Source: Actinomycetota bacterium (GTDB lineage: Bacteria > Actinomycetota > Humimicrobiia > Humimicrobiales > Humimicrobiaceae). From it: a DNA stretch of 64,000 nucleotides. Location: the NCBI GenBank assembly GCA_028698215.1, contig JAQVDY010000005.1:8108-72107 (forward strand), in the 5' to 3' direction. Of the stretch, positions 4,753-53,904 are shown piece by piece. Under the pieces are notes generated by a model that saw nothing but the letters and a program-made list of their open reading frames with translations, had not been told where the DNA came from and searched no databases. How positions within the stretch are numbered: the first letter of the stretch is position 1; each line of letters starts with the position of its first letter. The position numbers and the translations under genes are program-made.

Positions 4753-5190
4753 ATGGTAACTATTAATGTAAAATCAATTGATAAAAACGCTAAGTTTCCC
4801 ACTTACGCTCATCCCGGGGATGCTGGAATGGATCTGTACAGCAGGGTAATGATAACTTTAAAACCCATGGAAAGAAAGAAAATTCCTACCGGTATACAGG
4901 TGGCTATACCTGAAGGTTATGCCGGATTTGTGCAACCTAAATCTGGATTGGCCATTGATAATGGAATAGCGCTGGTAAACAGTCCAGGGCTAATTGATTC
5001 AGGGTTTAGGGGTGAAATATGTGCAATCTTAATTAATTTAGACCAGAAACAGGATTTTATTATAAATAAAGGCGATAAAATATGCCAGTTGGTTATACAA
5101 AAAGTAGAGAAAGCTGAAATTAAGACAGTTAGCCAACTGGATAATACCAGTAGGGGGAAGGGAGGGTTTGGCAGCACTGGAAGATTCTAA
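4753..5190 (+). CDS. dut: dUTP diphosphatase (trimeric dUTPase)
   Basis: 145 aa. Carries the dUTPase motifs AGMDL, GLIDSGFRGEI and the C-terminal GGFGSTG motif. Confidence 0.9.
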   Translation: MVTINVKSIDKNAKFPTYAHPGDAGMDLYSRVMITLKPMERKKIPTGIQVAIPEGYAGFVQPKSGLAIDNGIALVNSPGLIDSGFRGEICAILINLDQKQDFIINKGDKICQLVIQKVEKAEIKTVSQLDNTSRGKGGFGSTGRF

Positions 5191-6020
5191 TTTAGTAATA
5201 CCAAACCCAAACAGGACATTGCTTATACAAAAAGATTAATTCATTTCACCTTCAAGCGCATAAAAATTTAAAGCACATTATTTAAATTATTGCCCTGCCC
5301 CTAATGTTTACTGAGATATTTATCTATTATTATGACTACTATATATTACTAATTAGTATAAAAGATATAATTATAGATGTCTATATTGTAACATTTGTTA
5401 TAATATGAAAAGATTTATGGTAAATTATCTTATATTTTATGCCTAAACTAATGGCTTAACCTGGTTTGATAGCAAATTAACTGAATAGTTTATATACCAT
5501 CAAATTTTTTTAAAATAATGGATTCTTATACATAAATAATAATAAATTAGGACCTTGGAGAATGGCCGGTTGGGCAAGGCCATGTTATGGAGATCTGAGC
5601 TTAAGTTCCAAAAATAATATTACTAGCGCTGACAGGGTTATAGTTAATCATTTATGAAAATATAAATTAATCATCTATCAGAAACAGAAGCAATTAAAAG
5701 GTCTATATTGGCCAAAGAGAAGAAACTTAAAAACAAAATAATTGAGTTAGAATAAATAGATTATTTTATTTAAATTTTTACATTTTATAGAAGTAGGCTA
5801 GAAAGGCATGTGAAAGCGACTTTTTTAGGACAAAGGGATATAAAAGCCTGGTAATAGCTCTAAACACTAGGAAAAATATAGAATAAATATAACTACCGAT
5901 AATATATATTATGTTAACTTTTAAATATTTTAACTATTTTCCCCATCATTCCAAATACTCTACTTATATCCCCTGTAAATATTGTATTTAAAAGTTTACC
6001 AAAAATAATAAAAGCAAATA

Positions 6021-6060
6021 AAAAGTACAGGGGTATTACAATTACCCCTGTACTTTTTCC
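6021..6060 (-). terminator. Bidirectional rho-independent terminator after fucI
   Basis: Perfect 15-bp stem AAAAGTACAGGGGTA (6021-6035), loop TTACAAT, then TACCCCTGTACTTTT (6043-6057). A and T runs flank both sides. It lies 37 nt beyond the fucI stop. Confidence 0.8.
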
Positions 6061-6093
6061 AAGGACGATGTACGTGGTATAAAGAATCTTTAT

Positions 6094-7893
6094 TTAAATT
6101 TTCTTATACAGTGACCCAAAATTCCTACAGGCCCTGTAGTCAGCCCCCTCCATATCCTTGGTGCCAAAAGCAGCCCAGGCGCTAGGCCTAAACAGCTTGC
6201 TATCATCAACATTATGCATGGCCACCGGTATCCTTAGCATAGAAGCCAAGGTTATAAGCAAAGCTCCAATGTGACCATAACTGAATACTGCATGGTTTAC
6301 TCCCCAGTTGTTCATAAGGGTATAAGTATCGTTAAAGGGAATCTTACCGGTTATTTTAGGAGCAAACCAGGTATTGGGCCAGGTTGGGTCGGTTCTGTCA
6401 CTTAAAATCTGGCCAACTTTTTCCGGTAAAGAAACGGAATAGCCTTCTGCAATTTGAAGTACAGGGCCCAGTCCCTTGATAAGGTTTATCCTGAACATGG
6501 TTACCGGCATATCACCTTTAGTTACAAAGTTAGCAGAAAAGCCGCCGCCCCTGAAGTATTCAACGTTTGCTGGCCTAAACTGGGAATTGGCCAAGGTAGC
6601 CTTAACTTCATCTTCAGTGATATCCCAGTATGGCTTCATGGCAGGTTTTCCGTCTATGCTTTGCTGACCTGTTCCGTCTAATGCTGCTGAACCTGAATTT
6701 ATCAGATGTATAATACCAGTTTTGCCATAGCCCTCTAAATCATACCCGGTTACCCTTTTTACTGCCTCTGGGCTCCAGAAGGTTCTTACATCAGCAAATA
6801 CCTGTGCGGTATTGGTTAAGAGATGTCCAAAAATCATGGGGACGCCATTTAAGGCATCGTTTTCTGTAGCCACCAGGTAAGGCTGTCTTATGCCGTTCCA
6901 GTCAAAGGAAGTGTTTAGCATGGTTTCAGTAAAATCACCATTGGGGAAATGATCAGTCCACTGGCGCTGTCCCTGAAATCCGGATGCTAAAGCATTATGG
7001 CCCATAGCTTCTTCCTTAAAATCAATATCGGCCAGTTTTGGATTTCCTACCATAAGATCTCTTACAATTAAAGTCATTTTAACCACAAATTCCCAATCAG
7101 CATCTTTTTGTGCCCTGGTTTTCTGAATGGCAGGCGAGTTATTATCTGGTCCTTCTGTAAGGTTTTTCTTTACCCAATCCAGTGCTTTGCTGTATTCCTG
7201 GTGGTCATAGATGTTCTCTTCTATTCTCCTGATTATTTCAGTGGAATCAACATATTCACATCTCATTCCCAGATAATCTTCAAAGAAATTGGGATCTACT
7301 ATGGATCCGGCAATACCCATAGAGGTATTACCTATGGAAAGATAGGATTTACCCCTCATGGCTGCCACGGCTAGGCCGGCCTGGGCAAATTGAAGCAATT
7401 TCTGGGCTACATCTGAAGGTATGGAGGTATCATCTGCATCCTGCACGTCTTTACCGTATATGCCAAAAGCAGGAAGGCCTTTTTGGGCATGTGCTGCCAG
7501 AACTGCTGCCAGATATACTGCTCCCGGCCTTTCACTGCCGTTAAAACCCCAAACTGCTTTGGGCCTGGTGGGATGCATATCCATGGTTTCAGAGCCATAA
7601 CACCAGCTGGGAGTAACGGTAATGGTTAGGCCTACCCCTTCCCTGGCAAATTTATCATCGGCCATGGTAGCTTCTGCTACTCCGCCTATAGTGGTGTCCG
7701 CAATAACGCACTCCACTTGATCCCCGCAAGGGTGCCTTAAGTTTTCTGAAATTAGTTTAGCGGCAGATTTAGCCATGTTCATGGTCTGGGTTTCCAGAGA
7801 TTCCCTTACCCCCTTCCTTCTGCCATCGATGGTAGGCCTGATGCCTATTTTGGGCAAGGTACCTATTAACCTGTTTTTGGTTGAATCGCTCAT
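6094..7893 (-). CDS. fucI: L-fucose isomerase
   Basis: 599 aa. Near-collinear identity to E. coli FucI throughout, for example [55 protein letters not shown] and [29 protein letters not shown] lies 9 nt upstream. Confidence 0.95.
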
Positions 7894-7923
7894 GCTTTGG
7901 TGCTCCTTTATGTATTATTGTTT

Positions 7924-9168
7924 TTAATATTTTCCATACTCATAAGCTGCTTCCAGCATAGCTATAACATTCTGGGGAGGCACATCTGCCAAAATATTAT
8001 GTATTTGATTAAATACCATACCCCCACCCTCCCCTAAAATTTCAATTCTTTTTTTAACATCCTGCCTGATTTGTTCAGGGGTTCCCTTGGCCAGCACCTC
8101 TTGGGTATTACAGCCTCCACCCCAGAAAACCAGGTCATTTTTAAATTCTTTCTTAAGTTTTTCCGGTTCCATATCCCTGGCAGTGGTTTGAACTGGGTTT
8201 AATACATCTAAACCTGCATCAATTAATCCTGGTAAAAGCTCATAAATAGAGCCGCAAGAATGTAAAAATACCTTGCAGCTGCTGTTTTCATGTACAAAAT
8301 CCCACATTTTTTTATGGCGGGGCTTAAACACTTCATCATAGATTTCAGGTGACATGAATGGACCATCCTGTCCTCCCAGGTCATCACCAAACTGCAGCAA
8401 GTCAACATACTTCCCTACTCCATCAATAACCTTCTTTAACTTTACCAGATTTCTTTCTACCAGGGTGTCCAGCAGATACATGGTTTTCTTTTTATCGGTA
8501 TAAACATCCATCATAAAATTTGCCAGTCCCCTTAAAAATGTACCGGTTTCAAACATATTGCAGCCTACTGATAAAACTATGGAATAATCAGTCTCCTCAT
8601 ATAGCTTTTTAATGCCTTCCACAAACCGGTTAAATTGTTTAGGGTCAAATATGTTTAGATGCCAGGGCGGCGAAGGAATTGCCCACATATGCTTATCTAA
8701 ATCTTCATCATTGAATTCATCAGGGATAGATGGAAGGTTTTGGTAAATCCAAAAACACTGGTCTACGTAAAGGGAGGATGCTGGTTTCTTGCCCAGCCTG
8801 GTACCATTTTCATCTGAAACATATACGGTGTTTTTTTCATCAATTTCCACATTTAAAAATTGTGGTATTAAGCATTTAGACCCATCATTTAAGGTCCAGG
8901 TCCTCCAATCGTGTTCCGAGAGTAAGAACCCCTGTCCGGCATCAATGGCATCTATGTGGAAGTGTTTCATAATATCGCGTTGTGGAAAAGCAAGCTGCTG
9001 TATAAAGTCATACATCTTAGCCTGGCCACTTTCCTTTCCAAGCTCCTTTAACAGCTTATTGTAAGCAATAGTAGAAATACCTGAAGATCTCATGCTGCCC
9101 AGGTCAATGGGTATCCTGTCAGCGGTTTTATGTTCTAATATAGCCCTAATTCTTTGTCTGGAATTCAT
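7924..9168 (-). CDS. URO-D (uroporphyrinogen decarboxylase / MtaA-like methyltransferase) family protein, paralog 2
   Basis: Start trimmed to the internal Met (MNSRQRIRAIL...). It has SD GGGGAG 5 nt upstream and begins right after the stop of the upstream paralog. Family hallmarks are R-I-P-I-D-L-G near the N-terminus and the (beta/alpha)8 spacing. It parallels paralog 1 (TSYDRVIASLEHREPDRVPFDLGG). Confidence 0.6.
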   Translation of the reverse strand: MNSRQRIRAILEHKTADRIPIDLGSMRSSGISTIAYNKLLKELGKESGQAKMYDFIQQLAFPQRDIMKHFHIDAIDAGQGFLLSEHDWRTWTLNDGSKCLIPQFLNVEIDEKNTVYVSDENGTRLGKKPASSLYVDQCFWIYQNLPSIPDEFNDEDLDKHMWAIPSPPWHLNIFDPKQFNRFVEGIKKLYEETDYSIVLSVGCNMFETGTFLRGLANFMMDVYTDKKKTMYLLDTLVERNLVKLKKVIDGVGKYVDLLQFGDDLGGQDGPFMSPEIYDEVFKPRHKKMWDFVHENSSCKVFLHSCGSIYELLPGLIDAGLDVLNPVQTTARDMEPEKLKKEFKNDLVFWGGGCNTQEVLAKGTPEQIRQDVKKRIEILGEGGGMVFNQIHNILADVPPQNVIAMLEAAYEYGKY

Positions 9169-9181
9169 TTGGACTCCCCTG

Positions 9182-10345
9182 TTAGTATTTGCCAAAATCT
9201 TTTAATGTTTGCCACCAGGCCATGATATTTTCTGCAGGTACCGAGCTCTGTATGATGTGGATGGGAGAAAATATAAAGCCTCCTCCCGGAGCCAGGTCAT
9301 CAATTCTTCTTTTAGTTTCCTCTCTTACCTGTTGAGGAGTGCCAAAAGACATGATATTGTTATCACAGGAACCGCCCCAGAAGGTAAGATCTTGGCCAAA
9401 TTCTTTTTTAAGGGTTTTGGTATCCATTCCCTTGCAGTTAACCTGTACCGGGTTAAGGATATCCACTCCTGCTTCTAGGAGTAAAGGTATAGCCTCTTTT
9501 ATGGCTCCATCACAGTGGAAAAATATATAAACTTTGGATTTAGCCTTCTTTTTTATAAATTCAAACAGTTTTTTATGATAAGGCCAGATCAATTCCCGGT
9601 AGAGGTCCAGAGATACCAGCAAGCTGTCTTTATTGCCTAAATCATCAGCGGCAGATACCACCAATACATTATCCCCAACTGTTTCTAAAGCCTTCTGCCA
9701 ATAAGCCATTTTTATCTCCAGAAACTTGTCCATAATGGCCTGTACCATCTTTTTATTACATAGCATATCCATAAAAAATTGTTCATAGCCCCTCATCCAC
9801 ATGGCATTTTCCCACATCCCGGCACTCATTCTTTCTAAAAAATAAGCCCTCTTTTCCTCTTTTACTATCTGATCCGCTTTTTCTTTCAATTCTTCAAACC
9901 GGGCTGCATCAATTGGGTCCGGCCAGGGATAATTTTCTATGTCCGTAATAGTTTCGGCCTGCTGCAGGGGGCTTTGATAAATATCATAATAATGGCCTCC
10001 CTCTACCGGCATCCTGTATTCTATCCCGAACTCATCTATTAATCCGCAGTAATTATCTTTAATTCCCAAGTTCCGGTATAAACCTGGATTTTTTGGAGGA
10101 TTAGGAGCTACATTTTTAATATCAATTTCTAATTGTTCTATGATGTCCTGTTCCATTTTACCCAGTTGAGTAATGGTATCCCAGACTTCAGCCCGGCCCT
10201 TCAAGCCCAAAAAGTTTCTAAGATTATTTAGGGCCTTTATATTTATGCCCGCCACCAAGGCTCCACCCAGATCAAATGGAACCCTGTCCGGCTCCCTATG
10301 CTCAAGTGAAGCAATTACCCTGTCATAGCTTGTATATTTATCCAA
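9182..10345 (-). CDS. URO-D family protein, paralog 1 (probable TTG start, translationally coupled to AOR)
   Basis: The tool ORF (to 10567) overlaps the AOR 3' end in another frame. The homologous N-terminus starts at LDKYTSYDRVIASLEHREPDRVPFDLGG. The only start codon after the AOR stop (10356) is TTG at 10345. The C-terminus (VLNPVQ...FWGG...PGGGFIF) parallels paralog 2. Confidence 0.55.
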   Translation of the reverse strand: MDKYTSYDRVIASLEHREPDRVPFDLGGALVAGINIKALNNLRNFLGLKGRAEVWDTITQLGKMEQDIIEQLEIDIKNVAPNPPKNPGLYRNLGIKDNYCGLIDEFGIEYRMPVEGGHYYDIYQSPLQQAETITDIENYPWPDPIDAARFEELKEKADQIVKEEKRAYFLERMSAGMWENAMWMRGYEQFFMDMLCNKKMVQAIMDKFLEIKMAYWQKALETVGDNVLVVSAADDLGNKDSLLVSLDLYRELIWPYHKKLFEFIKKKAKSKVYIFFHCDGAIKEAIPLLLEAGVDILNPVQVNCKGMDTKTLKKEFGQDLTFWGGSCDNNIMSFGTPQQVREETKRRIDDLAPGGGFIFSPIHIIQSSVPAENIMAWWQTLKDFGKY

Positions 10346-10355
10346 TTTTTTAACT

Positions 10356-12239
10356 TTATTTATTTTTAAATTCAGTAAGTTCCAATTCCAGTAACTTGTG
10401 ATCGGTGGGTTTTCCCCCAGTATCCCACCCTGCCAGTTGATAGTAAAGCTGTTTGGCCTCCATAAACTGTTTTTTATCCAGGTGCATCCCTTGGTTCGGG
10501 CCATTTTCAATAGGTTCAAATATCCTGTCTGGCAGAATATCTTCTCCAACCTCTTCCCGCAGGGCAAACAACTTATACATATTTATCCTTTTTTCTCCAA
10601 TCTTAACCAGCTCAAACAAAGAAGTTTCCCATCCAGTCACCGCATCTATTATATCTACCAGATACTGAAAATTAAAAAATCTAACTGGGGAAAAGGCAAA
10701 AATACAGCCGCATAGTGCATCCAGCATAGAAAAAGCCGGCTGCAGTAAAAAAAACATCCTCACTTTGTCTTGATTTAGTGAATCTGCTGGTAACCGGTCA
10801 TATACGGTAAGTGGCGCCACCTTGTCCATAAACATTTGGTTTGCCTGAAAATCAAAGTCAGTATCATGTTCAACCACAGTATAGTAAGGGCCAATGGGAG
10901 AGACAGCGTAGCCTAATCCCAGCATTTGTTTAATTCTGGGTTCATGGAATGGCATTTCCATACCCTTTATATGCATCGCAAATTTTTCTGAACCCTGGAT
11001 ATGGTAGGAGGCCAGCCTTACCCCCTCGGCCAGGGTATCACCAATGGATTTTCTCTCCATAATCATGGTGGCCATCTTTAACATGGCCTGGGAATCACCC
11101 CACCTTAAACAGGTCCCCATGGTATCATCAGGGCTGATTAGCCCGTTTTCATAGCATTCCACTGCATAGCCCAATATGTTTCCCAGGGAGGTTCCGTCTA
11201 CCCCATAGTCGCAAATCATATTCCATAGCTTTAAGGTGGCTTCCATATCATCTACCAATAAATTGTAAGAGGTGGCAGCCAGGCTTTCCAGCTCGATAAG
11301 GCCGAACTCAGGATTAAGGTTAATATCCTTTACAGAAGGCAGCCTTTTTTTACACCCTCCCTGGCAGTGGGAACAGTTATGGTTCTCAGGGGCATATTTA
11401 TCAGCAATAGTGAAGCCATCTATGGATTCCGCCTTATCAAAGTAGGAATAATGAAAATTTTTAGCTGAAAGCATTCCCTGGTCAGATAATAGCTTTAGAT
11501 ACCCTGCATTGCTGGCGGGTCCATGCTGGCTTTCATTTAAGGGGTTGGTTAAAAAATTTTGCTCAAAATATTTGGAAACCTGGCCTAGCTTTTCAGGATT
11601 ACTGACCTTGATAGGTTTCTGGCCGTATACGCATAATGCTTTTAAATTCTTAGAACCCATTACTGCTCCCACACCACACCTTGAACTTATAAAACAGTTG
11701 TCTGTAATTATGGAAGCAAAACGAACCAGTTTTTCCCCTGCTGGCCCAATTAAGGCTATGCTGTGGCGGTTCAAGTCTTCCTGTTGGGTTAGAATGTTAT
11801 AAGCTTCAGAAGTTTTAAGCCCCCAAATATGATTAGCCTCTAAAAATTTTACTTCACCGTCATTTATCACTATCATGCAGGGCTTTTCAGATTTACCTTT
11901 TATAATAATAGCATCAAAACCAGATTTTTTAATCATTTCACCCAGGTAACCGGGAGTAGTAGCTTCCCCTATCAGGTTAGTTAAAGGAGACTTGGTAATT
12001 ACATTGTGCATGGCAGTTCCCGCACAATCCACTCCTGTAATGGGGGAAGTGGAAAAAATAAGGATATTATCCGGGGATAAGGGATCAGTTTTGGGCTTTA
12101 AATTCTTAAGTAAAAAGTAAGCTGCCAAGCAGGCCCCACCAATATATCTGCGGTAAAATTTATCATCTAACTTTATTGATTCTACCTGCTTATCGGTTAA
12201 ATCTATTTGTAAAACTTTGCCATTGTAACCAAAAGACAT
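10356..12239 (-). CDS. Aldehyde:ferredoxin oxidoreductase family protein (tungsten/molybdopterin, [4Fe-4S])
   Basis: 627 aa. AOR N-terminal signature MSFGYNGKVLQIDLT plus the conserved tungstopterin-binding and Cys-cluster regions. The ATG lies 4 nt after the ABC ATPase stop. Confidence 0.85.
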   Translation of the reverse strand: MSFGYNGKVLQIDLTDKQVESIKLDDKFYRRYIGGACLAAYFLLKNLKPKTDPLSPDNILIFSTSPITGVDCAGTAMHNVITKSPLTNLIGEATTPGYLGEMIKKSGFDAIIIKGKSEKPCMIVINDGEVKFLEANHIWGLKTSEAYNILTQQEDLNRHSIALIGPAGEKLVRFASIITDNCFISSRCGVGAVMGSKNLKALCVYGQKPIKVSNPEKLGQVSKYFEQNFLTNPLNESQHGPASNAGYLKLLSDQGMLSAKNFHYSYFDKAESIDGFTIADKYAPENHNCSHCQGGCKKRLPSVKDINLNPEFGLIELESLAATSYNLLVDDMEATLKLWNMICDYGVDGTSLGNILGYAVECYENGLISPDDTMGTCLRWGDSQAMLKMATMIMERKSIGDTLAEGVRLASYHIQGSEKFAMHIKGMEMPFHEPRIKQMLGLGYAVSPIGPYYTVVEHDTDFDFQANQMFMDKVAPLTVYDRLPADSLNQDKVRMFFLLQPAFSMLDALCGCIFAFSPVRFFNFQYLVDIIDAVTGWETSLFELVKIGEKRINMYKLFALREEVGEDILPDRIFEPIENGPNQGMHLDKKQFMEAKQLYYQLAGWDTGGKPTDHKLLELELTEFKNK

Positions 12240-12243
12240 AATA

Positions 12244-13752
12244 TTAAATATAATAGCTTCCTATTTCTTTACTAACTATATTGTAGCTATCTGCATCCTT
12301 GTTCACGTTTTCAATTTCCCCTACGATTTTTTTGTCCCTGAATATATATATTCTATTAGCCAGCTTAATAATCTCCGGCATATCCGAAGATATTAATATG
12401 ATAGATTTTCCAGACTTATGGGCCAGGTTATATATAAGTTGGTGGATGTATTCCTTGGCCCCTACATCCACGCCTATGGTAGGTTCATCAAATATAATGA
12501 TATCGCAGTCCGCTACCAGCCATTTGGCGATACTGACTTTCTGCTGATTTCCACCACTTAGCTTTCCTGCTATTTGGTTGAGCCCGGTAGTACGGATATC
12601 TAGGTTATCCACCATATCTTGGGCATGCTTCCTTTCTTTGTTGCCGTCAATAAACCTCAATATTTTGCTGGCTATCCTAGGCCAGATGGTAATACTGATA
12701 TTGGTTTGCAAGGTACTGCCCAGCAGAAGGCCTTCTTCCTTTCTATTTTCAGTAACATAACCCATCCGGTACCTGTATAGGCTATCAGCTATGGACCGGG
12801 GATTGATTTTTTTGCCTTTTAAGAATACTTCCCCAGACTGCCTCCGGTCCTCTCCAATGACAAGCCTGGCTAACTCGGTTCTGCCAGCACCTACCAATCC
12901 ATAAAAACCTAAAACTTCACCCGGGTAAAGTTTAAAGCTAACATCTTCAGCCTTGTGCTCCTTATAGATATTTTTTGCTTCCAATAAGGCTTTTCCGTTA
13001 TCCAGGGATTCAAACTTGAATGATTCAATCTTTTCTTCCCTGCCTATCATCATCTTTACCAAATCCTGTTTATCTACTTCGCTGATGGGTCTGGTTCCAA
13101 TTTTTTTACCATCCCTTAGTACGGTAACCATATCGCATACCATAAACACTTCTTCCAGTTTATGGGTAACAAACAAAATGATTATGCCTTTTTCCCTTAG
13201 ACCTTTTAGTATTGAAAAAAGCTTTTCTGCCTCGCCTTCAGAAATTGAAGAGGTAGGTTCGTCCAGAAGTAAAATTTTGGATTTGGAAGCCAATGATTTG
13301 GCTATCTCCACCATCTGTTTCTGGGCAACACTAAGCTCGCCAATAGGTTTGGTAGGGGGAACTTCTAATCCTACCATATCTAGATATTTCTTAGCAGTTT
13401 GATTAATTTTTTTCCAGTTAAGTACACCGGTCTTACCGTAAGTTACCATTTTGTCCAGCATAATATTTTCAGCCACACTATATCTGGGCAAAACCTGTAG
13501 CTCCTGGTTAACCACACTGATTTCTTTTTTCAAAGCATCTATGTAGTTTTCCACTACCAGTTCGTTAGAATTAAGATACATCTTACCGCTATCAGGCATG
13601 TGCACACCACAAATTACTTTAATTAAAGTGGATTTGCCTGCACCATTCTCCCCTAAAAGAGCATGTATCTGGCCCTGTCCAAATTCAACCGACACATCAT
13701 CTAACGCCTTTACTCCCGGAAAAGACTTACTTATGTTTTCTAACCTTAACAC
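12244..13752 (-). CDS. Sugar ABC transporter ATP-binding protein (RbsA/MglA-type, duplicated ATPase)
   Basis: 502 aa with two NBDs. Walker A GENGAGKST, LSGGNQQK signature, second NBD GLVGAGRTEL. GTG start with SD GGGGGA 8 nt upstream. Confidence 0.9.
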   Translation of the reverse strand: MLRLENISKSFPGVKALDDVSVEFGQGQIHALLGENGAGKSTLIKVICGVHMPDSGKMYLNSNELVVENYIDALKKEISVVNQELQVLPRYSVAENIMLDKMVTYGKTGVLNWKKINQTAKKYLDMVGLEVPPTKPIGELSVAQKQMVEIAKSLASKSKILLLDEPTSSISEGEAEKLFSILKGLREKGIIILFVTHKLEEVFMVCDMVTVLRDGKKIGTRPISEVDKQDLVKMMIGREEKIESFKFESLDNGKALLEAKNIYKEHKAEDVSFKLYPGEVLGFYGLVGAGRTELARLVIGEDRRQSGEVFLKGKKINPRSIADSLYRYRMGYVTENRKEEGLLLGSTLQTNISITIWPRIASKILRFIDGNKERKHAQDMVDNLDIRTTGLNQIAGKLSGGNQQKVSIAKWLVADCDIIIFDEPTIGVDVGAKEYIHQLIYNLAHKSGKSIILISSDMPEIIKLANRIYIFRDKKIVGEIENVNKDADSYNIVSKEIGSYYI

Positions 13753-13782
13753 CTTTTAGTTCCCCCTACCCTTCATATAATT

Positions 13783-14913
13783 TTATTTAAAATACTCTGT
13801 TTTGGCGCTTTCAGCTAAATCAAAAGCAGCCTGCCAAAGCTCATCCATGAAAGTATCAATATTATCCTGGGTAATAACTACACCAAAAGTATCGATAAAT
13901 GTATGGTCAGCCTTGGGCTCCAATCCATCTATCAGGTATTCCAGCAATAAAGGAGTAACATAACCCTGGCAGTATGGATTCTGGCCAAAGGTACCGGTAA
14001 TATAACCCTGCTCAACAGCCTTAAGTACAGCAGGATCATCATCAATACCAACAAAGGCTATACTGTCATTTTCCATTTCAGTAAGTATCTGAGCAACAGC
14101 TACAGTAGGATTGTATCCGGTGGTAACTATACCATTAATAGAATCTCCGCCAGCAGCTAATGCATTACTTACCTTTTCTATACATTCTTCCAGTTCATTC
14201 ATGTCACCTATGGTTTGCACTATTTCTACATCTGGATATTTGGCAGCAACTTCCTCCACGCCTTCTTTTCTGAGAATGGTGTTTGGATCGGTTACTACTT
14301 CCAGGACATTCAGTATTCCGCCTTTATAATCCATAGCTTCACATACTCTTTCAGCAGCTTCCATGGCAGCAGCCTTAACATCGGTAGCCACGGTAAAAGA
14401 TGCAGGAGTAGGCTCTTGGGTCTGAGCACCATAATTACATACCGGAACGCCTTGATCTACTACCTCTTGATATAAAGCATTAGCTCCAGCTGCATCCAGC
14501 GGGAAAACCATAAGTCCATTATAGCCCTGGGCTATTAATGCTTCTACCTGCTCATTTTCAGTAGGCTGGGTCCAGTCTGTACCTATTTGGGAATAAACTT
14601 CTACCCCGAAATCCTCAGCATGTTTAGCCAGGCCCTTTTTTACGGACTCATAGTATGGGTGAACTGCCGGCCAATAAGAACCCAACTTGTATTTGCTGGT
14701 ATCTACTGCTTCTTCAGCAGCCTCTTCAGCTTCTTCCACTACCGCTTCAGCAGCCTCTTCAGTTTCTTCCACTACCGCTTCAGCAGCCTCTTGAACTTCC
14801 TGGGCTGCTTGCTCTACTGTCTCTGCAGCGCCGGCGCAACCGCTAAGCGGAAGAGCCACTGCTAGTGACAATACCAGCAGGACCATTATAATTTTTGATA
14901 AATGCCTCTTCAT
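13783..14913 (-). CDS. Sugar-binding lipoprotein (ABC periplasmic binding protein, RbsB/PBP1 fold) with an acidic repeat linker
   Basis: Signal peptide with lipobox LSGC-AG. An Ala/Glu-rich linker (EAAEAVVEE x3) is followed by a periplasmic-binding-protein type I fold. SD AGGTGA. Confidence 0.8.
   Translation of the reverse strand: MKRHLSKIIMVLLVLSLAVALPLSGCAGAAETVEQAAQEVQEAAEAVVEETEEAAEAVVEEAEEAAEEAVDTSKYKLGSYWPAVHPYYESVKKGLAKHAEDFGVEVYSQIGTDWTQPTENEQVEALIAQGYNGLMVFPLDAAGANALYQEVVDQGVPVCNYGAQTQEPTPASFTVATDVKAAAMEAAERVCEAMDYKGGILNVLEVVTDPNTILRKEGVEEVAAKYPDVEIVQTIGDMNELEECIEKVSNALAAGGDSINGIVTTGYNPTVAVAQILTEMENDSIAFVGIDDDPAVLKAVEQGYITGTFGQNPYCQGYVTPLLLEYLIDGLEPKADHTFIDTFGVVITQDNIDTFMDELWQAAFDLAESAKTEYFK
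14712..14800. repeat. 33-bp in-frame tandem repeat (about 2.7 copies) encoding the AVVEEAEEAAE linker
   Basis: CTTCAGCAGCCTCTTCAG(C/T)TTCTTCCACTACCG occurs at 14712-14744 and 14745-14777, with a partial copy at 14778-14800. Confidence 0.85.
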
Positions 14914-14995
14914 TTACTATCACCTTTCTTTATGGTTTTATTGATAATACAGTTCTAATTTATTGCCACTACATAACCCCTCACCTCCATTTTTT

Positions 14996-15964
14996 TTATT
15001 CTATCAACCTTCTTTGATTGTATATATTTCTAACTCTGTCAATGGCTACTGCCAGCAGAATCAATAGTCCCAGGTATGCCTGTTCCCAATAAACATTGGT
15101 CTGCAGTATAATAAGACCGTTTTTAATCATTACCATAATAGCCCCACCTAAAAGAAGCCCGAATGCGGTAATAGAACCACCACTAAGAGCAGTACCTCCC
15201 AGAATAGCTACGGCAAAAGATATGATCAACCAGTCTTGTCCGGTAACCGGAGGTGCTGTACCCATTCTGGATATATAAAGTACTGCAGCCAGGGCGGCAA
15301 CAAAACCCGATAGTATATGGCTGAGTAATTTTATTTTGTCTGTATTTATACCTGAAAACTTGGAAGCTTCCAGGTTTTCTCCTACGGCCAGTATCCTTCT
15401 ACCTACTAAAGTATATTTAAAAAAGAGAAACATGATTATAAGGGCAAAAAGAGTGAAGATAAAAATATAGGGAATCCCAAACACTTTGCCTTTCCCCAAT
15501 ATGGTAAAAGTTAAGGGGATATTTACAAAAGAAAAACCTTGGGTAAAACCAAAATTTATACCAGTAAAGATAAATGAAGTAGCCAGGGTAACAATGAAAG
15601 CGTTTATGCCAAACTTGGCAGTAATAACCCCGTTTATGGCTCCGCAGGCTATACCTACCACTAATGCGGCAATAGTAGCTACTGCTCCATGTATTCCATG
15701 GATATCCATCAGGTATCCTGCAGTAATGGTAGCCAGACCGCCTATAGCACCCACTGATAGGTTCATGTCACCCACTACCAAGACCAATCCTTGAGCCAGC
15801 CCTATAAATACATATAAAGACAGCGTTCGGCCGGTAGTATACATGTTAAAAGGTGTCAGAAAACTGTCAGAAAAAATTGAAAGTATGGCAAATAATATCA
15901 TGGTTGCTATAAACAACCCAAAGTTTCCGCTGGTCAATATGTCTCTTATGTAGTTTTTTTTCAA
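14996..15964 (-). CDS. Sugar ABC transporter permease (RbsC/BPD-TM family)
   Basis: 322 aa, about 10 TM segments typical of RbsC. TTG start with SD GGGGAG 7 nt upstream. Confidence 0.85.
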   Translation of the reverse strand: MKKNYIRDILTSGNFGLFIATMILFAILSIFSDSFLTPFNMYTTGRTLSLYVFIGLAQGLVLVVGDMNLSVGAIGGLATITAGYLMDIHGIHGAVATIAALVVGIACGAINGVITAKFGINAFIVTLATSFIFTGINFGFTQGFSFVNIPLTFTILGKGKVFGIPYIFIFTLFALIIMFLFFKYTLVGRRILAVGENLEASKFSGINTDKIKLLSHILSGFVAALAAVLYISRMGTAPPVTGQDWLIISFAVAILGGTALSGGSITAFGLLLGGAIMVMIKNGLIILQTNVYWEQAYLGLLILLAVAIDRVRNIYNQRRLIE

Positions 15965-16016
15965 TTTCTTACTCCCCTTTGTTTGTTAAAGGATTTATTA
16001 AAAACTATATTGTTTT

Positions 16017-16760
16017 TCAGCTGCTTAATATTTCATCCTGTTTTTGGGAACTTTGTATCTGGCTATAGTTATTTTTTACAAATTCCAGGTGCTCTCTGAT
16101 ACTGGTTACTGCTTCATATTGTTTTTTATTTTTTATATTATTAAAAATAGTTCTGTGATCCTGCAAAGTGTTTTGCATTACCCCTGGTATTTCAGTAGTT
16201 TTAATAAGTATTTCAGTCATACAATATTTCAGGAGAGGAAAAATGATATCAAAATATTTTTTAATTACCTGGTTATGGGATGCTTCTGACAGCTTCTGGT
16301 GAAATTCATAATCCAGCCTTACGAACTCTTCGCTATTTTGCTTCCTAATATAGAAATCAGTAAGTTCCAGGTTTTCTTCCATTCCCTTTAAATCACTCTC
16401 ATTAGCGTGGTCAATGGCTGCCTGCACAGCAATTGACTCAAATAATTCCCTGAATTCCAAGAGGTCGGGCACTATCTTTTCATCCGGTTTAAAGGTGATA
16501 CGGGCCGGGTTAAAAAAAGAATTAATGGAAAAATCCTTGATATATGCCCCTACTCCAGGTTTGATTTCAATTACATCTACCAGCTCCAGTGCCTGAAGGG
16601 CTTCCCTTACGCTTCCCCTGCCGGTTTGATAGATGCGGCAGAGCTCATTTTGAGAAGGTAGAAGCTGGCCTGAGTTTAATTTACCTTGCCCAATATCTTC
16701 CAAAATCCGGTCAATAATAATTCTAGGAGCTTTCTTTTTTACACTCATCATACCTGTCAT
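16017..16760 (-). CDS. GntR-family transcriptional regulator (FadR/FCD subfamily)
   Basis: N-terminal GntR wHTH (LPSQNELCRIYQTGRGSVREALQALE) plus a C-terminal all-helical FCD-like domain. It sits 52 bp upstream of the permease and is co-oriented, so it is likely the first gene of the operon. Confidence 0.8.
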   Translation of the reverse strand: MTGMMSVKKKAPRIIIDRILEDIGQGKLNSGQLLPSQNELCRIYQTGRGSVREALQALELVDVIEIKPGVGAYIKDFSINSFFNPARITFKPDEKIVPDLLEFRELFESIAVQAAIDHANESDLKGMEENLELTDFYIRKQNSEEFVRLDYEFHQKLSEASHNQVIKKYFDIIFPLLKYCMTEILIKTTEIPGVMQNTLQDHRTIFNNIKNKKQYEAVTSIREHLEFVKNNYSQIQSSQKQDEILSS

Positions 16761-16848
16761 ACAAGTGTTATTGTTTTTAAATATTAGGCAACATTTAAAT
16801 AAAAGTCAATATAAAACTGCTAAAAAAAGAAATTAAAACAATTATTAT

Positions 16849-16888
16849 TGTTAACGTTTACATTATTAAAAAACAATTAATTTGTCAA
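16849..16888 (-). promoter_or_regulatory. Operon promoter (minus strand TTGACA-17-TAATGT) overlapped by a cre/LacI-type operator TGTTAACGTTTACA
   Basis: -35 is the reverse complement of 16883-16888 and -10 the reverse complement of 16860-16865. The 14-bp palindrome-like operator at 16849-16862 fits WTGNAANCGNWNNCW with one mismatch and overlaps -10/+1. Confidence 0.55.
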
Positions 16889-16897
16889 GTTTTTTCG

Positions 16898-17908
16898 CTA
16901 AGAAGTAGAGCTCCTGATTACAAGGTGTGTTCCCAGCCTGATAATTAAAGGCGGCTCATTTCTGTAATTTGATGGTTTGTTAATTTTTTTTATGATAAGC
17001 TCGGCTGCAGTATTGCCCATACTGTACACCGGTTGATTTATGGTGGTGATGGGAGGATCGGTTATCTGGGTCCAGTCCGGGTTGTCAAAACTTAATATGC
17101 CAATATCCCGGGGAATGTGCAAACCTTTGTTTTTTATGGCCAAAACCGCTCCTAGTGCCATATCCAGGTTAGTAACAAATATAACTTCCGGTCTTGGGTC
17201 GGCCTCCACTAGTTCGGTTGCTAAATTTATTCCACTTCTTTTTTTAAAATTACCAGTTTTTATTAAACCAGGGTCAATATTTATGTTTGCCTCAGTCAAA
17301 GCCCGCTTATAGCCCTCCAGCCGCTCTGCCCCCGTAGTCCGGTCAGGAAAACCATTAATAATAGCAATTCTTTTATATCCCCTGCTGATAAGGTATTTTA
17401 TTGCTTCATATGAGCCTTTTTCATTATCTACCAGGACTGCATCATTTTCCAATCCGGGTACTAGTCTGTCTACCAGTACTATCTGCATCCCTGATTTTTT
17501 TAAAAAATCAATATAGCTGGCATTCTTTCCGGTAGGAGTCAATATTATGCCGTCAACCCGGTTGGCTTTTAAAATCCTTAAATACTTTAGTTCTTTTTGG
17601 GGATTATCATCCCCATTGCATAAAATAAGGCTGTAACCCTCCTCTATGGCCACATCCTCTACTGCTTTAGCTAAAGTTGAATAAAATTGTGACAGCACAT
17701 TTCCTACAATAATACCCAGGGTATTGGTCTTTTCTCTTCTAAGGCTGCTGGCCACTGCGTTTATTTCATAATTGAATTGGGAGGCCACCTTCAGGACTTT
17801 TTTTTTGGTTTCCTCTTTTACTCCAGGATAATTGTGCATTACCCTGGACACCGTAGCGGTGGAAACACCTGCTTTACTGGCTATGGTTTTTATATTAATT
17901 TTTTTCAT
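16898..17908 (-). CDS. LacI-family transcriptional regulator
   Basis: Start placed at MKKINIKTIASKAGVSTATVSRVM (LacI HTH). A periplasmic-binding-protein-like effector domain follows. The longer tool ORF reads through the upstream operator. Confidence 0.85.
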   Translation of the reverse strand: MKKINIKTIASKAGVSTATVSRVMHNYPGVKEETKKKVLKVASQFNYEINAVASSLRREKTNTLGIIVGNVLSQFYSTLAKAVEDVAIEEGYSLILCNGDDNPQKELKYLRILKANRVDGIILTPTGKNASYIDFLKKSGMQIVLVDRLVPGLENDAVLVDNEKGSYEAIKYLISRGYKRIAIINGFPDRTTGAERLEGYKRALTEANINIDPGLIKTGNFKKRSGINLATELVEADPRPEVIFVTNLDMALGAVLAIKNKGLHIPRDIGILSFDNPDWTQITDPPITTINQPVYSMGNTAAELIIKKINKPSNYRNEPPLIIRLGTHLVIRSSTS

Positions 17909-17919
17909 GGCTTTATTTA

Positions 17920-17933
17920 TGTTAACGTTTACA
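17920..17933 (-). promoter_or_regulatory. Second copy of the operator TGTTAACGTTTACA, just upstream of the LacI start
   Basis: The 15-mer TGTTAACGTTTACAT is identical to 16849-16863. It lies 12 nt upstream of the LacI ATG, a geometry consistent with autoregulation. Confidence 0.5.
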
Positions 17934-17965
17934 TAATAAGCTAAAAAAAACATAAAATCAATAAG

Positions 17966-50300: not shown

Positions 50301-50446
50301 TATTATTTTAAACCATATTTTTAATAAAAAATTATCCCCTTAAAAACCCACTAAAGTTTGGTTACCCTAATTTTTAAAATATTGTTTAACTATTTTAAAT
50401 ATGGTAACATTCCTCTTTAAATAATTTGTTCCACAAAGGAGTTTAC

Positions 50447-51235
50447 ATGGATATAGTGGTGTGCATAAAACAGGTTCCAGGGACCTCGAAAGTGAAGATA
50501 GATCCCAAAACCGGTGTGCTTATTCGTAGTGGTATTGATACCAAGATGAACCCCTATGATTTATTTGCCCTGGAAACGGCCATAAGGATAAAAGAAGAAA
50601 AAGGCGGTACCATAAAAGTCATAAGTATGGGCCCTCCCCAGGCTACGGATGTAATCAAGGAAGCATACATGATGGGAGCCGATGAAGGGATTTTGCTTTC
50701 AGATAAAAGTTTTGCCGGGGCAGACGTATTAGCCACTTCCTATACCCTTTCCCAGGGTATAGAGAAACTTAAACCCTACCATTTAATTATTTGCGGTAAG
50801 CAAACTACAGATGGTGATACTGCCCAGGTAGGACCGGAAATAGCAGAATTTTTACAGATACCCCATATAGCTAATGTTTTAAATATTTTAGAAATAAGGG
50901 ATGACAATATGGTAGTAGAAATGGATATGCCTAACACCATAGAAGTGGCCAGGATTAGTTATCCCTGCCTTATAACCGTAGAAAAAGACATATTTGAGCC
51001 CCGCCTCCCCTCTTTTAAGAAAAAAGTTTCCACCCGGGATAAAGAGATAAAGATACTGGGCTTAAGAGATTTCAAGGACCAGGATACCGGCAGGTATGGG
51101 CTGAATGGCTCCCCTACCCAGGTAGAAAAGGTATTTCCACCTCCAGAAGATAACAGCCAGGAAAAATGGAAAGGAAATCCGGAAGAAACAGCCATAAGGA
51201 TTGCTGAAAAACTTAAAGAATTAAAGTATATATAA
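50447..51235 (+). CDS. etfB: Electron transfer flavoprotein beta subunit (LctB-like)
   Basis: MDIVVCIKQVP start with SD AAAGGAG 5 nt upstream. EtfB AMP-binding signature throughout. Confidence 0.85.
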   Translation: MDIVVCIKQVPGTSKVKIDPKTGVLIRSGIDTKMNPYDLFALETAIRIKEEKGGTIKVISMGPPQATDVIKEAYMMGADEGILLSDKSFAGADVLATSYTLSQGIEKLKPYHLIICGKQTTDGDTAQVGPEIAEFLQIPHIANVLNILEIRDDNMVVEMDMPNTIEVARISYPCLITVEKDIFEPRLPSFKKKVSTRDKEIKILGLRDFKDQDTGRYGLNGSPTQVEKVFPPPEDNSQEKWKGNPEETAIRIAEKLKELKYI

Positions 51236-51247
51236 GAGGTGTAGCTG

Positions 51248-52471
51248 ATGGGAAGATTAAAAATAAACCAGGAAAAAGTAAATAAACAAACTGCTGAAAA
51301 ATTAATAGATATATGCCCCTTTGGCAGCATCAGCCTAAAAAATGGCCAGCTGGAAATAGACTCCGGTTGTAAAATGTGCAAGATTTGCGTTAAAAAAGGT
51401 CCTAAGGGAGTCATAGAATTTATTGAAGATAAGAAGCCAACGGTTGATAAAAGCCAATGGAAAGATATAACTGTATATGTTGATCATATTGATGGACAAA
51501 TACACCCGGTCACCTATGAGCTAATAGGAAAAGCAAAAGAGCTGGCCCAGAAAGTTGGTTATAAGGTGAATTGCCTGTTCATTGGCCACCATATTACGGA
51601 CCAGGCCAGCCAATTGTTAGAATATGGAGTAAACCAGGTATTTGTATATGACGACCAGCATCTCAAGGATTTCCGCATAGAGCCCTATACATTGGCCTTT
51701 GAACACCATATAAAGCAGCAGAGACCTTCTGTGATACTGGTAGGGGCCACCACTATTGGCCGGTCACTGGCTCCCAGGGTTGCGGGTAGGTTCAGGACAG
51801 GCCTTACTGCGGATTGCACGGTTCTGGATATTAAGCAAAACACAGACCTGATTCAAATCAGGCCAGCATTCGGGGGCAATATAATGGCTAAGATTGTTAC
51901 CCCTAATTCCAGGCCTCAATTTGCCACGGTAAGATATAAGGTTATGGATGCTGCACCCAGATGCGGAGACCAGGGAGGAAAAATCACCCATATCGATATT
52001 AGCAAACTTAACTTTAAATCCGGGATTGAAGTATTAAACATTACGGAAAAAGAATTGGAAGAAAATATCTCTGATGCAGATACAATTATTGCGGTAGGCA
52101 AAGCTGTAAAAGACAATAAACAGATGGACTTAATAAAAGAGCTGGCCCAGTTGTTGGGAGCACAAATCGCAGGAACCAGGCCTCTTATAGAGAGCGGCTT
52201 GATAGAGCCACAAAAACAAATTGGATTAAGCGGAAGAACCGTTAAGCCAAAGCTGATTATTACCTTGGGAATATCAGGTGCAGTACAATTTATAGCGGGA
52301 ATGAGCGGCTCTGAACATATTTTTGCTGTAAACAAAGATCCGCAGGCGCCTATATTCAATGTGGCCAATTACAGCATTGTAGGTGATATTTTCGAGGTAG
52401 TCCCCCTGCTGATTGCAGAGATTAAAAAACATAAAGGAACTGATGTCAAAGAGTGTGTTGGAGTAAGATAA
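51248..52471 (+). CDS. etfA: Electron transfer flavoprotein alpha subunit with N-terminal [4Fe-4S] ferredoxin domain (LctC-like)
   Basis: N-terminal CPFG...CKMCKIC. EtfA FAD-binding C-terminus ([12 protein letters not shown]). Confidence 0.85.
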
Positions 52472-52482
52472 GGAGTAATGAT

Positions 52483-53904
52483 ATGAAAAAAGTATTAATA
52501 GATAATGATTACAAAAAGATTGACCTTAAGGATGTAGACTACCTGGCTGCTGTAGTAGGCAGGGATAATATATATTTGGGTGAAGATATACATGAAGATT
52601 TCTGCCACGATGAATTATTCAGCATAAGCCAGATGCCGGAAGTTTTAGTAGAAGTTCACAGTACTGAACAGATTTCAGCAATAATGAAGTATGCCCATGA
52701 GCAAAAAATACCGGTAGTAGTCAGGGGTTCAGGAACAGGCCTGGTAGGCGGTGCAGTCCCTATTTTTGGAGGTATACTTATAAATATAACCAAGATGGAT
52801 AAAATCATAAGCTTGGATGAGGAAAACCTGGCACTTACGGTGGAAGCAGGGGCCCTATTGATGGATATAGCCAAGTATGTAGAAGAAAGAGATCTTTTCT
52901 ATCCTCCAGATCCTGGTGAAAAATCTGCTACCATCGGAGGCAATATAAGTACTAATGCCGGGGGGATGAGGGCTTTAAAATATGGAGTTACCCGGGATTA
53001 TGTGCTGGGTCTGGAAGTGGTATTGCCTACAGGAGAGATATTCAACCTGGGAGGCAAGGTAGTTAAAAACTGTTCAGGATACAGCTTAAAGGACCTATTT
53101 TGCGGATCTGAAGGCACATTGGGTATAATTACCAAGGCTATTTTGAAATTAATTCCCCTTCCCAAGAAATCTATAAGCCTATTGGTGCCCTTCCCTGATC
53201 TAGACAGTGCGATTGCAGCAGTACCCAAAATTTTAAAGCTGAAAATAGTGCCCACAGCTATAGAATTTATGCAGAAAGAGGTATTAAAATCAGCTGAGGA
53301 ATACCTGGGCAAAAGTATTCCGGACAACACCGGGGCAGCTTCTTACCTTTTGTTCACCTTTGACGGCAACAGCAAGGAAGAAATTGAAAAAGAATATGAA
53401 AAAGTAGCTAAAGCCTGCATAGAAAATGGTGCCTTTGATGCCTATATAGTAGATACGGATGAGAGAAAGGAAATGGTTTGGTCGGCTCGAAGCACATTGC
53501 TGGAAGCAGTTAAGGCTTCTACTACGGAAATGGATGAATGCGATGTGGTATTACCCCGGACCAAGATAGCTGAATTTGTTGATTACCTGGATCATATAGA
53601 AGAAGAAGTAGATATAAGGATCAGAAGTTTCGGACATGCCGGAGACGGCAACCTCCATGTTTACGTATTAAGGGATAATCTTTCAGAAAGCGAATGGCAG
53701 GGCAAGCTAGAGGCTGCTTTTAACTTGATGTATAACAAAGCCATTGAACTGAAAGGCTTGGTATCCGGTGAGCATGGAATAGGTTATGCCAAGAAATCTT
53801 ACCTGGAGAACCAGTACGGCCATCAATATATGGAAATCATGAATAATATAAAGAGAGTATTTGATCCCAACAACATACTTAATCCGGGAAAAGTCTGTCA
53901 ATAA
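52483..53904 (+). CDS. FAD-linked oxidase, GlcD-type (LctD-like lactate dehydrogenase)
   Basis: FAD-binding PCMH domain ([16 protein letters not shown]) plus a C-terminal 4-oxidase domain. Start MKKVLID with SD AAGGAG. Confidence 0.8.

Follow-up and report, generated by a model that had tools for sequence, protein, structure and literature searches.

Two genes for proteins of the uroporphyrinogen decarboxylase (URO-D) fold lie side by side in a sugar operon of an Actinomycetota bacterium from the family Humimicrobiaceae (assembly GCA_028698215.1, contig JAQVDY010000005.1). They stand between the genes for a tungsten-type aldehyde:ferredoxin oxidoreductase (AOR) and L-fucose isomerase (FucI), within the stretch of 64,000 nucleotides that was analyzed here and is called the window. 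An earlier note, made from the sequence alone, had called the role of these two proteins in a sugar operon unexplained. This is no longer wholly the case, as the comparative context points to corrinoid-dependent demethylation of methylated sugars. Tentatively, both paralogs are proposed to be metal-dependent enzymes of the URO-D/MtaA fold that act as methyltransferase I (MT I, substrate:corrinoid methyltransferase) on O-methyl-fucose-type sugars, ahead of FucI. This reading is based on their fold, their putative metal site, the corrinoid proteins encoded beside their orthologues, and the fucose/6-deoxyhexose context of the genes. With some reserve, they may also represent a very large, widespread and undescribed family of corrinoid-dependent sugar O-demethylases, which in this lineage would be chained translationally to a tungsten AOR supplying low-potential electrons.

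Fold, family and putative metal site

The position of the URO-D-fold pair between AOR and FucI, its coordinates, the minus strand and the identities of the flanking genes were all confirmed. Paralog 1 (URO-D1, family fam1) is a protein of 387 aa encoded at 9182..10345, with a TTG start at 10345 and its stop at 9182-9184. Paralog 2 (URO-D2, family fam2) has 414 aa and is encoded at 7924..9168, with an ATG start at 9168 and its stop at 7924-7926. All operon coordinates given here are positions in the window, and the whole string of sugar genes is on the minus strand. Both proteins match the Pfam URO-D profile (PF01208, cut-off 23.9 bits), paralog 1 with an E-value of 2.6e-23 (83 bits) and paralog 2 with one of 3.3e-19 (69.5 bits). 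These alignments begin at profile position 100 or 151 of 346, so that the N-terminal part is unmatched. The paralogs align with each other from end to end (31% identity, E 2e-67), and the conserved N- and C-terminal blocks quoted in the earlier note were found in both. Structure models confidently give a URO-D-type (beta/alpha)8 barrel for the two proteins, with a predicted local distance difference test score (pLDDT) of 94.7 for paralog 1. Their closest likenesses are to URO-D and MtaA, with structures of URO-D ranking first among the structural matches. The sole named NCBIfam matches are weak ones to MtaA/MtbA/CmuA (TIGR01463, NF040654 and NF041608), at 33.5-45.9 bits versus cut-offs of 235-600. 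Searches of the PDB sequences with both proteins and with family profiles gave marginal matches to URO-D, CdmB and MtaA (E 0.002-0.3), which served for motif placement only.

The pair had been described as tandem, diverged paralogs. They are indeed diverged and share one sugar operon, but they are not the product of a local duplication, as each protein belongs to its own orthologous group. Paralog 1 has 63-77% identity, and paralog 2 60-81%, to proteins of Actinomycetota, Planctomycetota, Bacteroidota and other phyla. Fam2 stands alone in most loci. Fam1 is found alone in Prolixibacteraceae loci together with lyxose isomerase, an SSF transporter, a RhaM fusion and glycosidases, and also beside GH127. 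An adjacent fam1 and fam2 pair recurs in a few of the related loci (denoted by L numbers), namely L004, L097, L092/L093 and the Chloroflexia genomes L050 and L081. Because the two families occur independently elsewhere, it is probable that the two proteins accept different sugars or methyl positions. For the wider family, 895 clusters (50% identity) were counted at E <= 1e-30 and 4514 at E <= 1e-10. It is distributed over Chloroflexota, Planctomycetota, Bacteroidales, Spirochaetota and Actinomycetota, far beyond the acetogens, and nothing describing the fam1/fam2 family was found in the literature. A paper on Actinobacteria having the Wood-Ljungdahl pathway (PMC7325909) touches on hemE and AOR briefly and is not relevant to the pair.

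Both paralogs appear to retain a putative metal-type site at the zinc positions of MtaA, although with altered ligands, as judged from hhalign placement and conservation among orthologues. In paralog 2, H303 and C305 coincide with the His-x-Cys of a canonical MtaA-like protein encoded at locus L030, and H390 with its downstream Cys (hhalign, with a weak E-value of 0.007); this placement agrees with the fold. The residues H303, C305, H390, D262 and D263 are conserved in 83 of 83 fam2 orthologues (80 species), and the active-site residues are identical in orthologues with and without a corrinoid linkage. The corresponding site of paralog 1 is H277-x-D279...H363; the H-x-D...H pattern is invariant in 121 sequences (paralog 1 and 120 homologues), and Cys278, next to H277, varies among the homologues. 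The earlier note had suggested a search for the zinc triad of MtaA. Paralog 2 has the H-x-C part of it with a His at the third position, and paralog 1 has H-x-D...H, so neither protein has the canonical His-x-Cys...Cys triad. C353 of paralog 2 (in FWGGxC) was another candidate metal ligand and was rejected; only 45 of 83 sequences conserve it, and it aligns to a non-ligand position of the MtaA-like protein.

Gene neighborhoods in related genomes

The gene neighborhoods were surveyed with one genome per species, which resulted in 80 fam2 loci from many phyla. Genes were called with a homology-weighted picker of open reading frames (ORFs) and clustered, and the key ORF clusters were confirmed by Pfam. 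The resulting locus counts are lower bounds, with many contigs being short. A sugar transporter lies at most three genes away from the URO-D2 orthologue in 39 of the 80 loci, and 23 loci contain further URO-D paralogs. RhaM mutarotase is encoded in 17 loci (adjacent in 7) and a GH29 alpha-L-fucosidase in 8. Another 8 of 80 is the count for an L-fuconate-dehydratase-like enolase; Pfam identifies it by enolase-superfamily domains only, and we take it to be FucD from its N-terminal sequence. Together, any fucose/6-deoxyhexose marker (RhaM, GH29, FucI or the L-fuconate pathway) is found in 30 of the 80 loci.

The window, L004, L007, L010/L011, L092 and L097 all have FucI adjoining the URO-D genes. 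FucI is also present in the same locus in L045, with an ABC transporter between it and URO-D. L004/L097 have an FGGY kinase gene upstream, and L007 encodes a class II aldolase.

MtaC-type corrinoid proteins (PF02310 and PF02607, with the motif DxHxxG) are encoded in 11 of the 80 loci according to ORF clustering and in 13 according to tblastn. In six loci, the corrinoid protein is the next gene to the URO-D2 orthologue, and the adjacency of URO-D and corrinoid genes is observed in about five different architectures from three phyla. One of these is a Chloroflexota operon encoding a GntR regulator, a substrate-binding protein, a short-chain dehydrogenase/reductase, the FucD-like enolase, an ABC transporter, URO-D, the corrinoid protein, an NAD-epimerase-family protein and a FAH hydrolase. 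Judged by the FucD pathway of Xanthomonas, this is a non-phosphorylative L-fucose gene set, into which URO-D and a corrinoid protein are embedded. The Anaerolineae loci L060, L067 and L073 combine a corrinoid protein with RhaM and several types of URO-D. The Christensenellales locus L030 contains, on one strand within 11 kb, genes for a corrinoid protein, an MtaA-like URO-D protein (PF01208, 190 bits), the reductive activase RACo (PF14574), RhaM, a sugar ABC transporter and a fam2 URO-D. This is the only locus in which an MtaA-like protein, resembling methyltransferase II (MT II), and RACo stand beside the corrinoid protein.

Other arrangements of the same gene types were also observed. In an Anaeromyxobacter metagenome-assembled genome (MAG; L054, ~4900-7800), two corrinoid-protein genes and a gene for the methanol:cobalamin methyltransferase MtaB (PF12176, E 3.5e-154) are found at a distance of a few kb from a URO-D2 orthologue, RhaM and sugar ABC genes. 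Locus L094 (1-20021) has at least six URO-D-family genes within 21 kb, among GH38, an AXE1-type esterase and two CUT1 ABC systems, with no corrinoid gene in view. The Prolixibacteraceae sugar locus in L001-L003 encodes a 474-aa fusion of a CN_hydrolase and a RhaM mutarotase domain (L002 ~6107-7531), three more CN_hydrolases, a lyxose isomerase and a URO-D1 orthologue.

Proposed function and alternative explanations

URO-D-fold MT I proteins of corrinoid-dependent demethylase systems have been described, namely MtvB, OdmB, VdmB, MtoB and CdmB (PMC13222342; PDB 9RUI). Some members of this group contain zinc and others do not (PMC13222342). The paralogs share with these proteins the URO-D TIM-barrel fold and N-terminal extensions. 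Their C-terminal block, with the terminal G-K-Y included, aligns to CdmB, which is a proven URO-D-fold MT I; this similarity is marginal (E 0.0025-0.016) and covers the last ~75 residues only. In 11-13 of the 80 loci, an MtaC-type corrinoid protein is encoded by the side of the fam2 orthologue, with MT II and RACo in one locus, and the URO-D paralog expansions by sugar transporters and glycosidases resemble the MT I expansions in acetogens. On the other hand, the known MT I substrates are aryl methyl ethers and halomethanes, whereas the context of the paralogs is sugar import and fucose catabolism, and most fam2 loci, the window included, have no adjacent corrinoid protein. With the methylcobamide:coenzyme M methyltransferases MtaA/MtbA (PDB 4AY7), the paralogs share H-x-C at the equivalent strand, but the identity is 15-19%, the third ligand is a His, and paralog 1 has an Asp in place of the Cys. 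The paralogs are also longer (387 and 414 versus ~340 aa), have extra beta strands at about residues 85-130 of the models and lack a methanogenic context. The cobalamin-independent methionine synthase MetE is a far weaker match and differs in its double-barrel architecture and thiol-alkylating reaction.

A possible pathway can be outlined from these comparisons. The ABC system of the operon would import a methylated sugar, most likely O-methyl-L-fucose or a related methylated 6-deoxyhexose, and each paralog would bind one regio-isomer or sugar type. The metal held by His/Cys(Asp)/His would polarize the ether oxygen of the methyl sugar, and a corrinoid protein, with its gene at another place in the genome, would take up the methyl group on its Co(I). 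FucI would then isomerize the released L-fucose, with phosphorylation and aldol cleavage carried out by enzymes encoded elsewhere. Finally, the AOR could convert L-lactaldehyde into lactate, giving reduced ferredoxin that could also keep the corrinoid reduced.

Several observations weigh against this proposal. In agreement with the earlier note, which had found no corrinoid gene nearby, tblastn with six corrinoid proteins and Pfam scans of ORFs of at least 90-100 aa revealed no corrinoid protein in the window. No MT II or RACo was detected among the window ORFs, and an Rfam scan of the window gave one tRNA only and no cobalamin riboswitch. FucK and FucA are likewise missing, with neither an FGGY kinase nor a class II aldolase among the window ORFs, and the route to lactaldehyde is therefore assumed. 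In the closest relatives, L004, L007, L092 and L095-L097, no corrinoid protein, MT II or RACo is encoded within 10 kb, and about 84% of the 80 loci, many of them on short contigs, are without a corrinoid gene. Classical MT I genes normally adjoin the gene for their own corrinoid protein, and the alkyl methyl ethers of sugars donate methyl groups less readily than aryl ethers or halomethanes do. Of a demethylase system, the Chloroflexota operons have URO-D and the corrinoid protein only, with no MT II or activase nearby, and many of the corrinoid-linked loci come from related Chloroflexota and are thus not independent. Moreover, no literature on the family was found, and no family member has been characterized.

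A less likely explanation is that the paralogs are corrinoid-independent URO-D-fold metalloenzymes that catalyze another step on free 6-deoxyhexoses or their derivatives. This could be an isomerase or epimerase reaction, hydrolytic or lyase-type cleavage of an ether or ester, or the decarboxylation of a sugar acid, with the corrinoid neighbors being secondary or unrelated. Most loci, including the window and its closest relatives, are without a corrinoid gene; minimal loci of the type GH29-RhaM-URO-D or SSF-RhaM-URO-D suggest that URO-D is the first catabolic enzyme after the mutarotase, and the His/Asp/His site of fam1 is typical of Lewis-acid sugar enzymes. However, that MtaC-type corrinoid genes directly adjoin URO-D in about five different architectures is left unexplained in this way, as is the set of corrinoid protein, MtaA-like protein and RACo in L030. 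The identical active-site residues with or without a corrinoid linkage argue for a single chemistry, and many of the loci already encode FucI, FucD and the like as classical first enzymes.

It is improbable that the paralogs are MT II proteins like MtaA/MtbA, which transfer the methyl group from the methyl-corrinoid to a thiol or tetrahydrofolate, or that one of them is MT I and the other MT II. The best named NCBIfam matches, the H-x-C motif at the MtaA position and the occurrence of two different URO-D types side by side would fit such a role, but the scores are 34-46 bits against cut-offs of 235-600 and the third zinc ligand is a His instead of a Cys. In addition, L030 has a separate canonical MtaA-like protein (the 190-bit PF01208 match) beside its corrinoid protein, and the paralogs are far closer to each other than to MtaA-like proteins. 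An obligate MT I/MT II pair was rejected, as fam1 and fam2 occur independently in most genomes. There is practically no chance that the paralogs are genuine uroporphyrinogen decarboxylases (HemE; PDB 1J93, 3CYV and 1URO) placed in a sugar operon by chance, despite the Pfam match and the URO-D structures at the top of the structural matches. Their identity to URO-D structures is 12-18%, no HemE model is among the NCBIfam matches at E <= 1e-3, and the part of the profile left unmatched is the N-terminal, substrate-binding one. The conserved His/Cys/His site is missing from URO-D alignments and from HemE, and the genes stand in a sugar operon instead of a heme pathway, with no heme or tetrapyrrole-synthesis neighbors in the window or in ~95 related loci. 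HemE identity was rejected on the sequence models, the unmatched N-terminus, the low identity and the gene context.

O-methylated sugars, such as 2-O-methyl-fucose, 2-O-methyl-xylose, 3-O-methyl-rhamnose and 6-O-methyl-galactose, are common in plant pectin, in algal and cyanobacterial polysaccharides, and in soils and sediments. To our knowledge, the only known sugar O-demethylase is the cytochrome P450 6-O-methyl-D-galactose demethylase of marine Bacteroidetes, which is encoded in polysaccharide-utilization loci and feeds the free sugar into catabolism. It is an O2-dependent heme monooxygenase that releases formaldehyde and cannot work in anaerobes, and its fold and chemistry are unrelated to those of the URO-D-like paralogs. 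In the literature, no description was found of a corrinoid-dependent sugar demethylase or of methyl removal from O-methylated sugars by anaerobes. If the demethylase proposal is true, it would provide anaerobes, Chloroflexota, Planctomycetota and Bacteroidales with an oxygen-independent route into the methylated sugars of plant, algal and microbial glycans. It would also bring carbohydrates, besides aryl ethers and C1 compounds, within the scope of corrinoid methyltransferases and connect the breakdown of glycans with methyl-group (C1) metabolism. Corrinoid-dependent demethylases would thereby act on a class of substrates new to them and be very widely distributed, and thousands of genes annotated as 'uroporphyrinogen decarboxylase' or 'methyltransferase' would be re-annotated. 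If the corrinoid model is wrong, the family would still represent a conserved, unassigned step of fucose/6-deoxyhexose catabolism.

Operon anatomy and the start of paralog 1

The first gene of the operon encodes a GntR/FCD-family regulator (16017..16760; Pfam GntR and FCD), and its position is retained in the relatives L004, L007, L092 and L097. It is followed by a monosaccharide (CUT2-type) ABC permease (14996..15964; PF02653), of which the nearest NCBIfam resemblance is AraH/RbsC, under the cut-offs. The next gene, at 13783..14913, encodes a sugar-binding lipoprotein (Peripla_BP_4; PF13407, E 4.7e-45), for which the NCBIfam scan reached no equivalog and the ligand is therefore unassigned. 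In this protein, the lipobox is followed by a long, acidic, low-complexity linker rich in Ala, Glu and Val, AAETVEQAAQEVQEAAEAVVEETEEAAEAVVEEAEEAAEEAV, which causes a spurious apolipoprotein Pfam match. The sugar ABC ATPase (12244..13752), identified by Pfam and NCBIfam, has a double ABC_tran domain. The AOR (10356..12239) contains the AFOR_N and AFOR_C domains (PF02730 and PF01314) and the motif CxxCxxxC, and its best solved relative is the P. furiosus AOR (1AOR, E 6.7e-96), an enzyme of broad specificity. After the two URO-D genes, the last gene of the operon is FucI (6094..7893), assigned by the NCBIfam equivalogs NF008220 (1078 bits, cut-off 775) and TIGR01089 (1041 bits, cut-off 850). A strong intrinsic terminator, with a 16-bp stem followed by a T-run, ends the operon at 6020..6058.

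Upstream of the GntR gene, a promoter-like TTGACT-17-TAATAT is present at 16781..16809; this is a consensus pattern match only, and the region-wide count of such sites is not above that of shuffles. A LacI-family regulator (16898..17953; Pfam LacI and Peripla_BP_1/3) is encoded before it, and a LacI-family gene has the same place beside FucI/URO-D2 in L010 and L092. Its likely true start is at MKKINIKT, ~17908. The LacI-type operator-like 14-mer TGTAAACGTTAACA, a near-palindrome, occurs in two exactly identical copies on the minus strand. One lies at 17920..17933, directly 5' of the likely true LacI start, and the other at 16849..16862, between the LacI stop and the promoter-like site. With up to two mismatches allowed, TGTAAACGTTAACA has 7 matches versus 0.45 expected, and none of 100 shuffles gives as many as 7. 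The two 14-mers suggest LacI autoregulation and control of the operon, besides that by the GntR regulator. A single transcript may run from the promoter 5' of the GntR gene to the terminator past FucI, under the control of both GntR and LacI.

The junctions between the genes were read directly from the sequence. The ABC ATPase and AOR genes are separated by TAA-TATT-ATG, a spacer of 4 nt (12240-12243) without a Shine-Dalgarno (SD) sequence. AOR and paralog 1 are separated by TAA-AGTTAAAAAA-TTG, with an A-rich spacer of 10 nt (10346..10355) that is also without an SD, as the earlier note had stated. For the junction between the two paralogs, TAA-CAGGGGAGTCCAA-ATG (9169..9181), the note was right about the SD GGGGAG, which lies 5 nt 5' of the ATG, but not about the distance of 11 nt, as the spacer has 13 nt. 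Between paralog 2 and FucI, the TAA is followed by 30 nt containing AAGGAG and then an ATG. The two successive junctions without an SD, between ATPase and AOR and between AOR and URO-D1, therefore look translationally coupled, and termination-reinitiation between AOR and paralog 1 is plausible from the sequence. AOR and paralog 1 would both be translated by coupling to the preceding gene, across spacers of 4 and 10 nt.

The frame of paralog 1 is open upstream into AOR, and the first start codon past the AOR stop is the TTG at 10345. This is the best-supported start. The 120 homologues of paralog 1 are mostly 386-389 aa long and begin at the identical alignment column or one residue off, several of them being called with Leu or Val starts, and a database protein with 99% identity is called at 387 aa. 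In L092/L093, an Actinomycetia MAG with identical synteny, the junction is TAA-AAGATATA-TTG-GAT-AAA, with the TTG 8 nt past the AOR stop and no SD, so that TTG-GAT-AAA is kept. One annotation pipeline mis-called the L092 orthologue as 275 aa, indicating that this start is awkward for gene callers. In the more distant operon L004, URO-D1 has an ATG start and is preceded by a 77-nt spacer with the SD AAGGTGG; the compact AOR/URO-D1 junction is therefore lineage-specific.

That paralog 1 is a decaying copy, translated poorly or not at all, with paralog 2 as the only functional protein, is very improbable. A TTG start without an SD could be taken as a sign of decay, as could the truncated call of the L092 orthologue by one annotation pipeline and the related operon L007/L008, which appears to have lost URO-D1 and in which a 53-aa ORF remains. 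However, the full-length frame is intact and gives the high-scoring model mentioned above, orthologues across phyla have the 63-77% identity noted before, and 94 positions are at least 98% conserved in the 121 sequences. The retained TTG-GAT-AAA of L092/L093 and the recurrence of non-ATG starts at the same position in the family likewise speak for a translated gene. At L007 9843-10004, and also in L008, the otherwise identical operon has only the 53-aa ORF in the URO-D1 slot, with ~230 nt separating AOR from URO-D2, so that URO-D1 seems to be lost there.

The sugar island as a whole (6094-17953) lies at a fixed chromosomal spot, after genes for a BFN-domain protein, a 130-aa protein and a hexapeptide transferase, and its content varies. 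L010 has LacI-FucI-URO-D2, and the window and L092 have LacI-GntR-ABC-AOR-URO-D1-URO-D2-FucI. In L014, an apparently 5'-truncated URO-D2 is found directly past the hexapeptide gene. From these gene orders, GntR-ABC-AOR-URO-D1 may have arrived together as one inserted module. The surroundings of the island in the window consist of housekeeping genes only. Between the dUTPase gene and the operon terminator, an AT-rich stretch of ~830 nt (5191-6019) contains no ORF of at least 80 aa and has no Rfam match. Further away, at 50426-53904, genes for EtfB-like and EtfA-like proteins precede one for a FAD-linked oxidase of the GlcD type, a set that resembles the electron-bifurcating lactate dehydrogenase clusters of anaerobes. 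These genes could be relevant if the operon yields lactate.

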